DNA from: Candidatus Hydrogenedentota bacterium
Lineage (GTDB): Bacteria; Hydrogenedentota; Hydrogenedentia; Hydrogenedentales; JAEUWI01
Length of the DNA: 64,000 nucleotides
Assembly: GCA_016791475.1 (NCBI GenBank)
Contig: JAEUWI010000010.1
Coordinates: 20,352-84,351 of the forward strand
Direction of reading: 5' to 3'
The position numbers were made by a program, and so were the translations under genes. Positions 17,962 to 26,522 of this stretch are shown here, piece after piece (the stretch's first letter is position 1; every line of letters starts with the position of its first letter). The notes beneath the pieces were generated by a model that saw nothing but the letters and a program-made list of their open reading frames with translations, was not told where the DNA came from and ran no database searches.

Positions 17962-19443
17962 GTGATGAATAAAATTAAATTTACCAAATCAACCCTCGGC
18001 CTCGCCGGCGCCGCCGTGGCCACCGCCGGTCTGTTTTCACTCTACGATGCCCCCGTGGCCCTGGGAAACGATGCGACCCCCGGTATCGCCGCGCTGCAAA
18101 ACCTCAGCGACACCTACGTGCAGGTCGCGGAGCAAACCTCCAATGGCGTCGTGTTCATCGAGATCAGCAAGACGATGGCGTCGCCCGCCGCGTTCGGCGA
18201 GGGCTTCGACGGCCCTGGCAGTCCCTTCCGCCACTTCTTCGGCCCCGGCGGTATCCCTGGATTTCGCCAGGGGCCCCAGGGCGACCAAATGCCCATGCCC
18301 GTGGGCACCGGATCGGGTTTCATAATTACCTCGGATGGTTACATCGTCACGAACAATCACGTGGCTGCGGAAGCGGATGGACTGAAAGTCACCCTGCAGG
18401 ACGGTCGTGTCTTTGACGCCACCGTCGTGGGCACCGATCCCCAGACTGAAGTGGCCCTTCTGAAAGTGGACGCCACCGGTCTTCCGACCGTTACCCTCGG
18501 CGACTCCGACAAGGTGCGCGTGGGCGAGTGGGTGCTGGCCGTGGGCAGCCCCTTCGGCCTCGACCACACCGTGACCTCTGGTATCGTCAGCGCCCAGGGC
18601 CGGAGTGAAGTCGGCATCGTGGACTATGCGAACTTTATCCAGACGGACGCCGCCATCAACCCCGGCAACTCCGGCGGCCCGCTGATTAACCTTCATGGCG
18701 AAGTCATCGGCATGAACACCGCCATCCTCAGCAGCAGCGGCGGCAGCAACGGTATCGGATTTGCCATTCCGGTGAATATGGTCAAGAGCGTCGTGGACGA
18801 TCTGAAAGACGACGGCAAGGTCCAGCGCGGTTACCTGGGCGTGCACATTCAGAATATCTCGCCCGAAATGTCCAAGTGGTTTGATATCGAAGCGGGCCAG
18901 GGCGCCCTCGTAGCCGAAGTCGCCGAGGGGTCACCCGCGGAACAGGCCGGCCTGCAGAAGGACGACGTCGTCGTCAGTATCGACGGCCAGGTCGTGAAGG
19001 ATGCCGGTGCGCTTCGCAGCCGCGTGGCCACCTCCGCCCCGAACAAGGAACTGAAACTGGAAGTTCTTCGAAATGGCGAACGGATGGAGAAGAGCGTGAC
19101 GCTCGGACAACTGGATTCTGATGGCGTGGCCAGCAGCGGAAATGCCCCGGCGGGCAGCCCGTCCCGCCTTGGCATACAACTCCAGAACCTGGACGAGAAC
19201 ATTGCGAACCAACTGGGCTTCACCGGTGACGGCGGTGTGGTGATTTCCGCCGTCGAGCCGGGTTCTCAGGCCGCCCGCGAAGGCCTCGCCCGAGGCATGG
19301 TCATCACGGAGGTAAATCGAATCCCCGTAAAAAACGTCCAAGAGTTCAAGGAAGCCCTGGAGAAGGGAAAGAAGGACGGATCGGTACTGCTCAACATCCA
19401 GCAGGAAGGCCATTCCCGCTACGTTGCGATGAAGCTCTCGTAA
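17962..19443 (+). CDS. htrA: Do-family periplasmic serine endopeptidase (HtrA/DegP/DegQ) with two PDZ domains
   Basis: catalytic triad regions TNNHV, D, GNSGGPL; two PDZ segments; signal peptide. Confidence 0.9.
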   Translation: MMNKIKFTKSTLGLAGAAVATAGLFSLYDAPVALGNDATPGIAALQNLSDTYVQVAEQTSNGVVFIEISKTMASPAAFGEGFDGPGSPFRHFFGPGGIPGFRQGPQGDQMPMPVGTGSGFIITSDGYIVTNNHVAAEADGLKVTLQDGRVFDATVVGTDPQTEVALLKVDATGLPTVTLGDSDKVRVGEWVLAVGSPFGLDHTVTSGIVSAQGRSEVGIVDYANFIQTDAAINPGNSGGPLINLHGEVIGMNTAILSSSGGSNGIGFAIPVNMVKSVVDDLKDDGKVQRGYLGVHIQNISPEMSKWFDIEAGQGALVAEVAEGSPAEQAGLQKDDVVVSIDGQVVKDAGALRSRVATSAPNKELKLEVLRNGERMEKSVTLGQLDSDGVASSGNAPAGSPSRLGIQLQNLDENIANQLGFTGDGGVVISAVEPGSQAAREGLARGMVITEVNRIPVKNVQEFKEALEKGKKDGSVLLNIQQEGHSRYVAMKLS

Positions 19444-19476
19444 GTAGCGCGCAAGATTGCAGGCTTCAGGTAAGGA

Positions 19477-19515
19477 AACCGGCCCGATCCTCAGGGATCG
19501 GGCCGGTTTATCGTC
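19477..19515 (+). terminator. Rho-independent terminator of htrA
   Basis: perfect 14-bp stem AACCGGCCCGATCC/GGATCGGGCCGGTT, loop TCAG, T-rich tail. Confidence 0.8.
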
Positions 19516-19585
19516 TGTAGTTTCGAGTGAAAAGGTATGGGTGCAGATCTGCTATTACCGATAATAATGATAGATAAATACAGTT

Positions 19586-20491
19586 GTGGGCTCCAGGTTG
19601 GAATTGGCTATACTTAATTTGCACAAAAAGTTAGCGCAACCCAACGAGGAACCCACAATGCTTGTAGAGAAGATGTTAGTAGCTGCCATGGCCGAATACA
19701 AGAAATTTTTGCTCGAATATTGCTCGGGTGCCGCGGAGCTGGAATTGTCACCGGCTTCGTCCGCTTTGATTGTATCGGGGCTTCACCAGGCTGCCAATGC
19801 GGCTTCAAAGGCGGCACTCCGCCTTTTCCTCGAGGCCAAGGACGAGACCGACGATCTGATTCGGGTCGGCCAGGATTCGTACCGTTTCAAGTTTTTGAGC
19901 GAGCGCGAGGCGCTGTCTCCCTGGGGTAAGATGCGGTTCGCGCGCAGGCTTTATCAGAATGCCAAGGACCAGTCCCACGTCCCATTGGATTCGGCTTGGG
20001 GCATGTCTGGCGAATTCATGATGGCTGAAGTACGCGAGGCGGTGGCTTTTGCCAGCGCCCACGTCACGCCCCAGGAGGTGGCCGAGCTGATGGAGAAGAG
20101 TGCTCAGTTCCACCCGCACCGCACCCAGATCCTGGAGGCGTTGGAGCGTATTGACGCACGGGTGTCGGATATGCGCGATTCCGTCGACGAACGCATACGC
20201 GAACAAGAGTCGGCGCCTGAGAATGTGCGCGTGCTCGTGGCCAGCATGGACGGCGCGAACGTGTTGCTCAACGAGCCTGGCAAAAAGCGAGGTCGCCCCG
20301 CAGAGCGCCCCAAAGGCGGTTCGGAGGAAGAGTCCAAGACCTCGTACAAGAACGCCATGGCCGGCTGCGTAATCCGACGCAAAGCGGCCACCGATTCCGA
20401 GCGAAAGCGGCCACTCGTTCCGACGCAAAGCGGCCATCCATTCCGAGCGAAGGCGGCCAGCGATTCCGACGGAAGGCGGCCACTTTTCTAA
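19586..20491 (+). CDS. hypothetical protein interrupted by IS21-family insertion (native part 19586..20374; reading frame resumes at 22822..22977)
   Basis: coding-like composition; last ~35 codons translate the IS terminal repeats; removing 20375..22821 restores an in-frame ORF ending at 22977. Confidence 0.55.
   Translation: MGSRLELAILNLHKKLAQPNEEPTMLVEKMLVAAMAEYKKFLLEYCSGAAELELSPASSALIVSGLHQAANAASKAALRLFLEAKDETDDLIRVGQDSYRFKFLSEREALSPWGKMRFARRLYQNAKDQSHVPLDSAWGMSGEFMMAEVREAVAFASAHVTPQEVAELMEKSAQFHPHRTQILEALERIDARVSDMRDSVDERIREQESAPENVRVLVASMDGANVLLNEPGKKRGRPAERPKGGSEEESKTSYKNAMAGCVIRRKAATDSERKRPLVPTQSGHPFRAKAASDSDGRRPLF
20375..20487. repeat. IS21 left-end multi-repeat (5 tandem ~22-23 nt units, AAAGCGGCCAC-N5-TTCCGA[GC]CG)
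   Basis: seen directly; inverted copies at 22775..22814. Confidence 0.7.
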
Positions 20492-20572
20492 GGGGGAGCG
20501 CAGGCGGCGCGGGATAACGTTGATCGGGCACAATCGTGCTCCTTTTCGGCTTTTTAGAGCGAGGAGGTTGCG

Positions 20573-22099
20573 ATGCCCGCGGAGCGGATATCCATGCGCA
20601 AGATTCGAGAAGTGTTGCGGTTGAGTTTGGGCGGGCGGCTGAGCGCCCGCGCGGTAGCGGTTAGTTGCGGGATGGGCCGGACGGCCGTGCTGGAGTATGT
20701 GCGGCGGGCGGCCCGCGCCGGGCTGTCGTGGCCGCTGCCGGAGGGGTTGGCGGACGATACGCTGGAGGCCTTGCTGTTTCCGCCCGCCGCACCGGCCGAG
20801 GGCGACCGCCCGCTGCCGGTGTGGCAGGAGGTGTATGACTCGCTCACGGGCAAGGGGGTGAGGCTGTACCTGTTGTGGGAGGGGTACCGGGCGCTGCATC
20901 CGGCGGGCTACGGGTACAGCCGCTTCTGCGAACTATACCGGGACTGGGCGGGCAAGCTGCCGGTGTGGATGCGGCAGGAGCACAAGGCGGGGGAAAAGCT
21001 GTTCGTGGATTATGCGGGCATGACGATGCCGGTCACGGACCGCGAGACGGGCGAGGTCCGTCAGGCCCAGATCTTCGTGGCGGCGCTGGAGGTCAGCGGC
21101 TACACTTTCGCGGAGGCGACCTGGACCCAGACCCTGCCCGACTTCATCGCCTCCCACGTCCGCGCCCTTGAATTCTTCGGCGGCTGCCCGGCGCTGGTGG
21201 TGCCGGACAACCTGCGCAGCGCCGTGTCGCGCCCGTACCGCTACGGCCCCGAGATCACCCCGGTCTACACGGAACTGGCGGTCCACTACGGCGTGGCGAT
21301 CCTGCCTGCGCTGGTGCGCAAGCCTCGGGACAAGGCCAAGGCGGAGTCGAGCGTCCTAGGCGTGGAGCGACGCGTCCTGGCCGCGCTGCGGGAGCGGACC
21401 TTCATCAGCCTGGCGGAACTCAACGCGGCTATCGCCCCGTTACTGTTGGTGTATAACATCCGCGCGTTCCAGCAGCGGGAGGATTCGCGCCGGAGCCAGT
21501 TCGAGGCCTTCGACGCGCCCGCGCTAGAGCCCCTTCCCCGGACCCGCCACGAGTACGCGGAGTGGCTCAAGGCCCGCGTCAGCCTCGACTACCACATCCG
21601 CGCCGACGGCCACTGTTACAGTGTGCCGTACTGGCTCGTGAAGGGGGAGGTTCAGGTGCGTATGACCGCCACCCATGTGGAGATATTCCTCAACAATACC
21701 AGGGTCGCCAGCCACCTCCGCTCCCACCAGAAGGATCGCCACAGCACATGCCGCGAGCACATGCCCAAGGGCCACCAGGCCCACGCCGAATGGCCCCCCG
21801 AACGCATCAAACACTGGGTCGGGCAGGCTGGCCCCGCCACCGCCGAGGTGGCCCAGGCCATCATGGACGCGCGCCCCCATCCCGAGCAGGGATTCCGCGC
21901 CAGCATGGGCCTCAAGCGCCTGGGCGACACACTGGGCGCGGAGCCCCTCGAAGCCGCGTGCGCCCGCGCCCCGGCCCTGCAATCACCGTCCTACCAGAGC
22001 GTCAAGCCCATCCCTGCGAAGGGACTCGACCGCGAGCCCCCGCCCCAACTCGAGCCACCCATGCCGCTCATCGAGCACGAGGCGGCTTATTACCAATAA
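20573..22099 (+). CDS. istA: IS21-family transposase IstA
   Basis: N-terminal HTH (MRKIREVLRLSLGGRLSARAVA...), DDE catalytic region DYAGMTMPV...EATWTQTLPDF...VVPDNLRSAV; 508 aa. Confidence 0.88.
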   Translation: MPAERISMRKIREVLRLSLGGRLSARAVAVSCGMGRTAVLEYVRRAARAGLSWPLPEGLADDTLEALLFPPAAPAEGDRPLPVWQEVYDSLTGKGVRLYLLWEGYRALHPAGYGYSRFCELYRDWAGKLPVWMRQEHKAGEKLFVDYAGMTMPVTDRETGEVRQAQIFVAALEVSGYTFAEATWTQTLPDFIASHVRALEFFGGCPALVVPDNLRSAVSRPYRYGPEITPVYTELAVHYGVAILPALVRKPRDKAKAESSVLGVERRVLAALRERTFISLAELNAAIAPLLLVYNIRAFQQREDSRRSQFEAFDAPALEPLPRTRHEYAEWLKARVSLDYHIRADGHCYSVPYWLVKGEVQVRMTATHVEIFLNNTRVASHLRSHQKDRHSTCREHMPKGHQAHAEWPPERIKHWVGQAGPATAEVAQAIMDARPHPEQGFRASMGLKRLGDTLGAEPLEAACARAPALQSPSYQSVKPIPAKGLDREPPPQLEPPMPLIEHEAAYYQ

Positions 22100-22136
22100 C
22101 ACAACACCCATGCACCAAGAAAGGAAACACACACCC

Positions 22137-22751
22137 ATGCTCCTTCACCCGACCCTGGACAAGCTCGCCGCCAAACTGCGCCAGAGCGCAACCATCGAGG
22201 ACATCGACCTGCGCACGCCGCGCGGCATCGACAAAGTCGCCCTGCTCGCCCTCGCCGGCTGCGCTTGGCTGCGCAAGCATCACAACCTCATCATTACCGG
22301 GCCCACCGGAACCGGCAAAAGCTACATCGCCTGCGCTCTGGGAGACCGCGCCTGCCGCGAGGGCTACCGCGTCCTCTACTACCGCGCCCCCCGGGCTCTT
22401 CCAGGAGCTCGCCATAGCCCGGGGCGACGGCTGCTACGACCGCCTCCTGCGCGCCCTCGCCCGCACCGACCTCCTCATTCTCGACGACTGGGGCACCGCC
22501 CCCTGACCGACGAACAGCGAAAAGACCTCTTCGAAGTCGTCGAAGACCCCTACGACCGCAAGAGTACCCTCATCGCAGCACAACTACCCACCCAGCACTG
22601 GCACCAGCTCATCGGAGACCCAACACTCGCCGACTCCCTGCTTGACAGACTCATCCACAACGCCTACGCCATCACTCTAAAGGGGGAGTCCATGCGAAAG
22701 AAAAGAGCCCAAAACTTGATTCCCGAAGCGCCATCGGGTACGAACTCATAG
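22137..22751 (+). pseudogene. istB: IS21-family helper ATPase IstB disrupted by two compensating frameshifts in homopolymer runs
   Basis: Walker A ITGPTGTGKSYIA in frame A to ~22385; LFQELAIARGDGCYDRLLRALARTDLLILDDWGTAP in frame B to 22506; LTDEQRKDLFEVVEDPYDRKSTLIAAQ back in frame A; extra G in CCCCCGGG run, missing C in C6 run. Confidence 0.7.
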
Positions 22752-23074
22752 ACAATTGAAACGCCCGCGTCGCTGCGCTCCGAAGCCTGGCCGCCTTCGC
22801 TCGGAATCGGTGGCCGTAATCGTCGGTATATGCAGAGGGGAAGCGCGTTCGACGCGACTTCCCCTCGCTCCAGTACGACGCCCGCGCCACGCCGAAATCA
22901 GCGGCCGCGATCCGCCGTTTCCGATGGACTACTCGTGCCGAAATATGTATGGCACTGCTAAAATTCCGGGTTTTTAGGCAATCGCTTCGCCTTCAACCGG
23001 GTAAACGCGCGCGCCTGATGGATAGGGGGATTTTCTCCCGTGGCTCCATATACGCTCAGGTCGCCGGGCCTTCC

Positions 23075-24532
23075 TCATTCGGCACCGTGGAGTTTGAGTG
23101 ATATGACTTCCACGTAGTAATACCCCGGCCGTGAAGATATTGTGCCCTCCACATCAACGATCCTGCCCGCCACGGTTTCATCGATTTCGAGGGTAGAGCC
23201 CGCCGGACCTGCGAGAAGTATTATACGCCCTTCCATGTTTGAGCCGGTGAGGACACCGAGAGGAACACCACCCTTTAGGCTGGCGATGGCGCAGCGACGA
23301 CGCGATTGTCCCGAAGATGACCAGTGTGCACCGAGATAGCACTTCGTTGACAGAAGCTCTCCACTGAAGTTGACCGTCCCTCCAATCGCCTGCGGGGCGG
23401 TCACGGCGACGGTGGTTGTGTCCCCGATAGGAAGTGGCGGGGTACTTACCTCCATCTCAAGCATCGCAGTCGTACCACGATATCTAATCCTACCTTCAAC
23501 GCTGACATGAAGGTCGTCAAACTGCCGCCAATTCGACGGAACCCCCTGATGCCCGGTGCCACAGAGTAATACGTACTGGCCCAGACTAGGGTTTTCGTTC
23601 CAATCGGGGGATAGGTATATGGAAGGAAAAGGCCGAGAAGTGTAGATTCCGCGAAGCACCGTCCGGGAGTATACATCCGAAAAAGCCGTTTTAACCATTG
23701 GCGGCGCACTTGCCAGCGCGCCCGTGATTGCAACGAATACGATCATGGTCGCTGCGGTTCCCGCCGGTACAGCGGGCAGGCCATCTCTTCGTATCGACGC
23801 CCAACACGAATTTCTATTGTTGAGAGCGCTCGGTATTGCACTCGTTGGTGGCACGCTGTCTGCCTTTTGGGAAAATGCTTGTGCAACGATAAGCGTGATT
23901 GCGAACGATACCGGGCCAGCAATCAACAGAGTTTCGTAGACAGGATTTGAGTCGTACTGATAAGCACCCAGTGCGAACCAGATCCAGGCGGAGGCATAAG
24001 CAGGGTAGACGAGCGCCTGCACGCCCCGCCAAACTCCGGATGTCCTTTGTATGCGCCAATAGCGGTATCCCGTACTCGCGATCAACCCTGAAGTAAATAG
24101 TGCCAATAGGCCAAAAGCCTCAGAGGGTAATTCGCTGACACTAGTTCGTTGTTCGGATAGTTCTACAACAAATCTTGTGTAATCCGCCAGTAGACCGGTG
24201 AGATCAACCCCACGCTCACCAGTGTCTACAATCGCCAGATGAAGCATGCCCATCATGAAAGCAGCAAGAACTATAGCCGGACGGTGCTTGTAAAGCGGGT
24301 AGAATGAATTGTGTAATCGCGAAAGGGCCGCTGAACTCGCCGCCATTTGAAAGTAAAGCAGTGTGAGCAAACTCGTCACACGGCCAAGTTCCGCCATGAC
24401 AGGGATTGTATGTTGCAGTATTTCGGACACAGTAAAGTACGCGACGGCGCTCGCCATAGTACAAATAAGCAACAGCAGTGCAAAAATAAGGGCTTGGGCC
24501 TTGTCCTCGGGCGTCTCGTCGTATGGCATCAC
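23075..24532 (-). CDS. hypothetical integral membrane protein (about 8 TM) with ~220-aa C-terminal beta-rich extracytoplasmic domain
   Basis: ORF track; GC about 52%, lower than backbone; ATGA-coupled to upstream 205-aa gene; no family recognised. Confidence 0.55.
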   Translation of the reverse strand: MMPYDETPEDKAQALIFALLLLICTMASAVAYFTVSEILQHTIPVMAELGRVTSLLTLLYFQMAASSAALSRLHNSFYPLYKHRPAIVLAAFMMGMLHLAIVDTGERGVDLTGLLADYTRFVVELSEQRTSVSELPSEAFGLLALFTSGLIASTGYRYWRIQRTSGVWRGVQALVYPAYASAWIWFALGAYQYDSNPVYETLLIAGPVSFAITLIVAQAFSQKADSVPPTSAIPSALNNRNSCWASIRRDGLPAVPAGTAATMIVFVAITGALASAPPMVKTAFSDVYSRTVLRGIYTSRPFPSIYLSPDWNENPSLGQYVLLCGTGHQGVPSNWRQFDDLHVSVEGRIRYRGTTAMLEMEVSTPPLPIGDTTTVAVTAPQAIGGTVNFSGELLSTKCYLGAHWSSSGQSRRRCAIASLKGGVPLGVLTGSNMEGRIILLAGPAGSTLEIDETVAGRIVDVEGTISSRPGYYYVEVISLKLHGAE

Positions 24533-25499: not shown

Positions 25500-26522
25500 T
25501 CAATAATACGTGCAGACCAATTGCGACAGCATGTAGTCGGAACGGGACTTGGGGTCAGCGCCGTACTTGATGAAGCGCACACTGCCATCCATGAAGAGCA
25601 CGTTGGAGCCACCGGGAACGTGGTTGAACTCGATATCGCCAGGTTCTTCCATCAACTGCATGTCGTACCAGACGGGAACCATGGACTGAGCTTTGGCGCT
25701 GCCTGCGGCATTGTTGATATCGGTGATCAGGAAACGTTCAATGCCTTCCCGTACGCGATACATAGAGATGTTGGTATTGATGGAGTTCGGCGGATATTCG
25801 CCAGCGACGCCAGCACCCAGCGCGGTCAGGGTATCAAACATCGTGTTGACCTTGTGGGTATAATCCGCAGTGCCCATGATGTTGCCCCAGTCGTGAACCG
25901 TCCAATTGTAAGGATCAGCCTGGTTCACAAAGTGACTGTTGTCGAAGGTCCAAGGCCAGTATCCATAGCTGGACTCAGTGCGGATGTAGCAACCGGGAAC
26001 GGAGAAACCGCCCTTGGTGCCAGCAAACGCGTTGCGCGCACGGCACGCGTCTTCGGAAGGATTCGGGGTCACAGCCGCACCACCGCGAATGGCGGCAGGC
26101 ACCCAGCTCGGACCACCAGTAGCCCACGCATCATTGATTACGCGGAAGTTGTTGGCATCCGAGCCAGTACCGCCATCCTTAGCCGACGGGCAAATAAGTA
26201 CCTGCAAGTCGGTCAAGTATTCGGGGTAGATGGCATAGGTGTCAATCGTGTCGGACCACGTGCCGCTCGTTACCGTGTCGGAGCTGCTGTAGTTGGTGTA
26301 GTTCTGGGGGAACACACCACCTGCCGACTCATTGGAAAACATTTTGAAGACAAGGCCCATCTGCTTCAGGTTGTTCTGGCAGCTGGCGCGACGCGCGGCT
26401 TCACGGGCGCGGGCCAGAGCGGGGAGCAGGATGGCGGCAAGAATACCGATGATGGCAATAACTACCAGCAATTCAATGAGGGTGAAGCCACGCTTCGATT
26501 TCGGACGTCTAAGGGTTGTCAT
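25500..26522 (-). CDS. prepilin-type N-terminal cleavage/methylation protein with DUF1559 (H-X9-DG) domain, pseudopilin-like
   Basis: [46 protein letters not shown]-terminus; C-terminal [12 protein letters not shown] motif typical of DUF1559 proteins abundant in Planctomycetes. Confidence 0.85.

Follow-up and report, generated by a model that had tools for sequence, protein, structure and literature searches.

A decayed IS21-family element adjoining an ISKra4-like remnant in a Candidatus Hydrogenedentota genome

Nested and truncated insertion sequences (IS) are commonplace, and their occurrence together with an adjacent deletion is a generic outcome for DDE-type insertion sequences. A well-described architecture is that of the IS21 family, in which the elements end in CA and their terminal inverted repeats consist of several direct repeats placed 23 bp apart; target duplications of its member IS5376 are 5 bp long (PMC10122671). 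Here we describe an IS21-family element (20366..22834, forward strand) and the ISKra4-like insertion sequence remnant to its left, both within a stretch of 64,000 nucleotides from contig JAEUWI010000010.1 of Candidatus Hydrogenedentota bacterium, hereafter the window, to which positions refer unless another locus is named. An initial annotation had taken the element for a recent insertion, flanked by the 7-bp target duplication CGTAATC, inside a gene of ~314 amino acids that its removal would restore exactly. We find instead an ordinary decayed IS21 element adjoining the remnant of another IS, and comparison with relatives indicates that both the duplication and the restored gene are artefacts of element ends that were placed too far inside, by 9 and 13 bases.

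Ends and terminal repeats of the IS21-family element

The element at 20366..22834 belongs to the IS21 family, as had been proposed: its IstA matches NF033546 (E=5e-72; 242.9 bits, where the cutoff is 160) and PF22483 (E=9e-20), and fragments of its IstB match PF01695 (E=9e-20) and NF038214 (E=5.5e-23). It is a defective copy of 2469 bp with TG...CA termini, the ends being set by homology, with the TG at 20366 and the CA at 22834 as its tips. The left terminal inverted repeat region (20366..20482, forward strand) consists of five tandem 23-bp repeats with the consensus ..ATTCCGAsCGmAAGGCGGCCA, and the right one (22788..22834, reverse strand) of two inverted 23/24-bp repeats. The end arrays were thus correctly described in their five left and two right copies and only their period needs amending, from ~22 to 23 nt. 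Such arrays are of the kind bound by IstA and can be regarded as predicted IstA sites. Furthermore, in a self-comparison of the window, the inverted repeat pairs 20365-20413 with 22835-22788, and so runs beyond the ends proposed earlier.

We collected relatives of the element through IstA, and fixed its ends from L001, L002, L003 and L005 together with 119 metagenomic ends. The nearest IstA relative, L001, is a contig from a Myxococcota metagenome-assembled genome and carries a 2633-bp element with 89% nucleotide identity and 85% amino acid identity in IstA. At its left end, flanking sequence ...CCTGGCGTC gives way to TGCGTAATCCGACGGAAAGCGGCCA, and at its right end ...GGTGGCCGCAATCGTCGGAATACGCA is followed by GTCTGGG; the right tip itself reads TGGCCGCAATCGTCGGAATACGCA in L001 and GGGCGGAATCGTCGGAATACGCA in L003, and TGCGTATTCCGA opens the elements in L002, L003 and L005. 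A metagenome scan with the pattern TGCGTAWTCCGACGN{4,5}CGGCCA yielded at least 120 ends. In the 119 that were analysed, conservation starts exactly at the T of the TG; there is none at positions -20 to -1, where the maximum base frequency is ~0.3.

As a side observation, the tip motif TGCGTAWTCCGACG....CGGCCA (L085-L204) is very common in environmental metagenomes, with at least 120 matches; the samples among the matches listed are soil, sediment, freshwater and peat, and most of the matches listed do not resemble the window element more closely than do the relatives from genome collections.

These ends bear directly on the proposed duplication. CGTAATC does occur at 20368-20374 and at 22815-22821, as stated in the initial annotation. 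The left copy occupies positions 3-9 of the first left repeat unit, TGCGTAATCCGACGCAAAGCGGCCA, and the right copy lies at positions 14-20 from the right tip, within the terminal right repeat unit TGGCCGTAATCGTCGGTATATGCA. On the left, TGCGTAATCCGACG is kept in L001 beside a different flank, and TGCGTAATCC is the IS tip in L001 too, where it adjoins unrelated sequence. On the right, the counterpart of the 7-mer is CGCAATC in L001 and GGGAATC in L003, and the 13 nt that lie 3' of it in the window, GTCGGTATATGCA, match the right-tip consensus GTCGGAATACGCA. Both copies thus fall inside terminal repeats that are conserved in L001, in L003 and among the metagenomic ends, and are best read as inherited IS sequence. 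Membership of the 7-bp repeat in the terminal inverted repeats is what the initial annotation had itself named in advance as an observation that would refute its reading. Nor is the coincidence a striking one: two 46-nt end windows share a 7-mer in 8% of shuffles, and CGTAATC occurs three times on the forward and twice on the reverse strand of the window, near expectation.

At the true tips, the flanks are GCCGGC on the left and GAGGGG on the right, and directly against the TG and CA of the window copy there is no target duplication of the expected 4-8 bp. Nine two-ended elements were found among the matches listed (2584-2672 bp), three of which have perfect duplications that touch TG and CA: CACGC in L110, GCAAG in L198 and ATCTTCG in L135. 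The missing duplication is, accordingly, peculiar to the window copy, where it reflects a rearrangement, and is not a trait of the IS21 family.

What can be said for a recent simple insertion of the element, spanning 20375-22814, into a resident gene of ~314 amino acids, from which precise excision would restore the gene, is that a 7-mer stands on both sides, that 7 bp lies within the range of duplications seen in relatives (as in L135), and that the join is in frame. Set against this is the origin of the 7-mers just described, the left one in an IS tip conserved in L001 and the right one followed by right-tip consensus. The sequence on either side of the element also speaks against such an insertion, as detailed below, and we give it next to no credence.

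The ISKra4-like remnant and the surrounding spacer

The supposed host gene instead encodes an ISKra4-like transposase, of which it covers the N-terminal half. Of an ISKra4-like insertion sequence, the leftmost 827 bp occupy 19539..20365 (forward strand) and end at the IS21 left tip. Their left terminal inverted repeat, GGGTGCAGATCTGCTATTACCG (19539..19560, forward strand), agrees in 21 of 22 bases with that of L081, a complete element described below; it occurs only once in the window, and 100 shuffles gave no match. The transposase is represented by its N-terminal 236 codons (19658..20365, forward strand), which begin at ATG 19658 behind a GAGGAA ribosome-binding site; this ATG, and not GTG 19586, is the start. 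The 263-amino-acid upstream translation matches NF033572, the ISKra4 profile, with E=7e-11 and 41.8 bits over profile positions 25-202 of 422, and a database search with it recovered 24 homologues. By tblastn, residues 1-237 of one homologue (P0001) align to 19658-20365 with 50% identity (E=9e-71).

Complete ISKra4-like homologues are 435-461 amino acids long. They match from ATG 19658 to 20365 and then run ~210-230 residues further (...NAMVGSVSFYGEVPEGEKCPERL...); likewise, the alignment to a family hidden Markov model (HMM) covers its positions 4-221 of 451 and breaks off at the IS21 tip. The missing part was sought in several ways. A tblastn search of the 64-kb window with the 24 homologues matched only the N-terminal segment and found no C-terminal half; the family HMM, run with filters off over six frames of 22700-23600, gave negative scores only; and the right inverted repeat of the ISKra4-like element is absent from the entire window. 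A frame at 22823 or 22835 (SVYAEGKRVRRDFPSLQYDARATPK...) had been considered as the continuation, where homologues read SFYGEVPEGEKCPERL..RYV..MPEE, and was rejected because the HMM score was negative and tblastn returned nothing. A second copy of the duplication expected for this element, AAAGGTAT, is also absent from the right spacer, where the best match was 6 of 8.

The boundaries of this IS can be taken from L081, where the duplication and inverted repeats delimit a complete ISKra4-like element; L081 and L082 are one locus in two samples, so that comparing them does not help to place the boundaries. The element spans 349-1902 of L081 (1554 bp), interrupts a gene and is flanked by the 8-bp target duplication ATTTATAG. 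Its inverted repeats are imperfect, with GGGTG starts, and read GGGTGCAGATCTGCCATTACCGCT on the left and, in reverse complement, GGGTGTAGCTCCGATTTTACCGCT at the right end; when the element is excised, an open reading frame of 265 amino acids is restored exactly. L081 is in this sense a true case of what had been assumed for the window. A further IS cluster with a member of this rare family is present in contig L083, where genes for an ISKra4-like transposase (8-1237) and an ISL3-family transposase (PF01610; 1348-2703) adjoin back to back.

Measured against L081, 19539-20365 is the left 53% of an ISKra4-like IS, and the family, to judge from its ends and duplication, is a genuine one. Three complete homologues align with NF033572 end to end (E 1e-51 to 1e-54) at 174-183 bits, a little short of the curated cutoff of 205; a Pfam scan of full-length homologues gave no match. 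Because of these scores and the want of a Pfam family, the homologues are a divergent subgroup.

With the host thus identified, the restored reading frame loses its meaning. Joining 20374 to 22822 does extend the open reading frame that starts at 19586 by 51 codons to a stop at 22977, giving a product of 314 amino acids, as had been reported. The added codons do not resemble the ISKra4-like homologues and match no family, and the homologues part from the restored tail at once, so that the uninterrupted allele expected in relatives is not what they contain. Past the IS, all three forward frames run on without a stop, for 45, 51 and 92 codons; any join would therefore look in-frame, and the observed one is uninformative.

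The surroundings point in the same direction. To the left of both IS lies htrA/degP (17962-19443), and to their right a gene for a protein of 485 amino acids, without assigned function (23075-24532, reverse strand), is convergent with it. This protein shows 100% identity to one encoded by a Candidatus Hydrogenedentes metagenome-assembled genome. In the related locus L205, the htrA orthologue (83% amino acid identity over 242 residues) is likewise convergent with an orthologue of the 485-amino-acid gene (53% amino acid identity), and the intergenic spacer between them is 249 bp long and holds no IS; the non-IS spacer of the window amounts to 95 bp plus 240 bp. A spacer of the size seen in L205 would never have had room for a resident gene of 314 amino acids, and the uninterrupted allele is missing here as well. 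The right part of the spacer, from the IS21 right tip to the 3' end of the 485-amino-acid gene (22835..23074), has no ISKra4-like similarity in any frame and no Pfam match.

L205 also bears on the possibility that the flanks of two IS21 copies were joined through the repeat during assembly, in which case neither the missing duplication nor the truncation would be real. Assemblies typically break or are mis-joined at IS copies, the window is part of a metagenome-assembled genome, and many relatives of the element sit on stand-alone contigs of ~3 kb. Since the outer flanks of the two IS are direct convergent neighbours in L205, both outer junctions come from one locus, which argues against a chimera: a mis-assembly would have to have swapped only the inner ~830 bp. 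We consider such an artefact very improbable.

Two hairpins lie in the spacer. The first, at 19476-19509, has a perfect 15-bp stem (-31.5 kcal/mol) followed by TTTAT, begins 33 nt past the htrA stop and is probably the htrA terminator; the left end of the ISKra4-like element begins 30 nt past it. The second, at 22835-22866 (GAGGGGAAGCGCG TTCGA CGCGACTTCCCCTC, -25.6 kcal/mol), abuts the IS21 right tip. It was checked as a possible relative of repetitive extragenic palindromes and has no second copy in the window; since both strands lack a T-run, it does not qualify as a canonical terminator.

Further neighbours in the window are housekeeping proteins, with Lon, a small GTPase and MurC besides HtrA/DegP, and a DUF1559 protein. 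The last of these, encoded at 25503-26522 on the reverse strand of this Candidatus Hydrogenedentes genome, carries an N-terminal methylation motif and is of a type typical of Planctomycetota-like genomes.

Decay and probable history of the locus

The IS21 copy is itself damaged. Its lesions were called against L001, in which IstB is intact. The istA transposase gene (20573..22099, forward strand; 508 amino acids; NF033546, PF22483) has a 12-bp deletion at 22083, by which the residues NVRG of L001 are lost near the IstA C-terminus. The istB helper ATPase gene (22138..22751, forward strand) is defective, with PF01695 and NF038214 matching only fragments in two different frames: a 153-bp in-frame deletion at 22169 affects the N-terminal region of IstB, and an additional G at 22393, compensated by a missing C at 22499, disrupts the frame of 35 codons, among them those for the Walker B segment DLLILDDWG. 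The terminal arrays differ as well, with five left repeat units in the window against four in L001 and two right units against three. The copy thus bears four lesions that are predicted to be inactivating. IstB is a dedicated ATPase on which IstA depends (PMC11208146); given this dependence and the damage to IstB, the window copy is probably not autonomous and would be immobile on its own. Lacking a duplication at its true ends, sitting next to an IS of which half is missing and carrying four lesions, the copy is no recent arrival, and the proposed recent insertional pseudogene dissolves with it.

For the anatomy that we observe, with its ends, absent duplication, truncation and lesions, the best explanation is very probably one of nested insertions in the intergenic spacer between htrA and the 485-amino-acid gene, followed by an IS-adjacent deletion. 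An ISKra4-like IS would first have entered the spacer just past the htrA terminator hairpin (19476-19509), and the IS21 element would then have entered its transposase gene. A deletion starting exactly from the IS21 right tip would next have taken the remaining ISKra4-like sequence, of at least ~730 bp, and with it one of the copies of the IS21 duplication, either through intramolecular transposition or through recombination with a second IS21 copy. Decay of the IS21 copy would have come last.

The same anatomy could have arisen without intramolecular transposition, by recombination between two IS21 copies in the same orientation or by truncation of the ISKra4-like fragment before the IS21 element arrived. 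Either route leaves an IS without a duplication and with one foreign flank, and the mechanism is not observable from a single copy. For prior truncation, the break would have to lie, to the nucleotide, at the IS21 tip, which is unlikely, and the HMM alignment reaches that tip; for recombination, a second IS21 copy is absent from the 64 kb. We regard such a different history as rather unlikely, but as a more serious contender than either an assembly artefact or a simple insertion.

Several points weigh against nested insertion and deletion as set out above. How the deletion arose, and in which order the events followed one another, we infer rather than observe, because neither IS has a second copy within the window. 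At the right tip, the terminal 8 bases, TATATGCA, differ from the consensus AATACGCA at 2 positions, and the right boundary therefore depends on an identity of 11/13 and on the upstream repeat unit. L001 and L003, two of the relatives from which the ends were fixed, have no clean duplication of their own, and are ~3-kb contigs that are possibly assembly-chimeric. Finally, both istB frameshifts fall in C/G homopolymer runs (CCCCCCGGG and CCCCC) and could be sequencing or assembly errors; the 12-bp and 153-bp deletions are not of the homopolymer-error kind.

Significance and comparison with known insertion sequences

The locus holds no freshly interrupted cellular gene, and is unfit both as an example of a precise duplication and as a marker of recent IS activity. 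It also illustrates that the ends of IS21-family elements should be set by their TG...CA tips and by comparison among copies, because internally repetitive IS21 ends readily give false target duplications. The addition to the catalogue is modest and consists of an unnamed, defective IS21-family copy and a divergent ISKra4-like remnant in a Hydrogenedentes genome.

Both elements might come from undescribed, mainly environmental IS lineages, a reading for which we see an even chance. Within it, the IS21 clade may be marked by the tip TGCGTAWTCCGACG and by unusually long arrays, with 4-6 left-end IstA sites and at least 120 matches, and the ISKra4-like clade may be marked by the lack of Pfam coverage, GGGTG ends and 8-bp duplications. 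Even if these lineages are real, neither would be new in kind.

The window element has the organization of the prototypes IS21 and IS5376 and of ISPpu23, with istA followed by istB, TG...CA termini and repeats spaced 23 bp apart, and its relatives duplicate 5-7 bp. The closest named relative, ISPpu23, shares only ~58% identity in IstA, which, together with 85% to the nearest uncultured relative, makes this an unnamed IS. It differs from the IS21 prototypes in having five left repeats where they have two (L1/L2), and from the family at large in that the window copy has no target duplication and is damaged in both istA and istB. The ISKra4-like element resembles the ISKra4 family (NF033572) in that its homologues align end to end and that L081 has an 8-bp duplication and imperfect repeats that open with GGG; it differs in homologue scores of 174-183 bits, under the cutoff of 205, and in that only the left 53% is kept in the window. 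Taken as a whole, the locus matches known clusters of nested and truncated IS with adjacent deletions, in which one IS stops at another's tip, the inner IS lacks a target duplication and half of the outer one is gone, and from these it shows no difference in kind.

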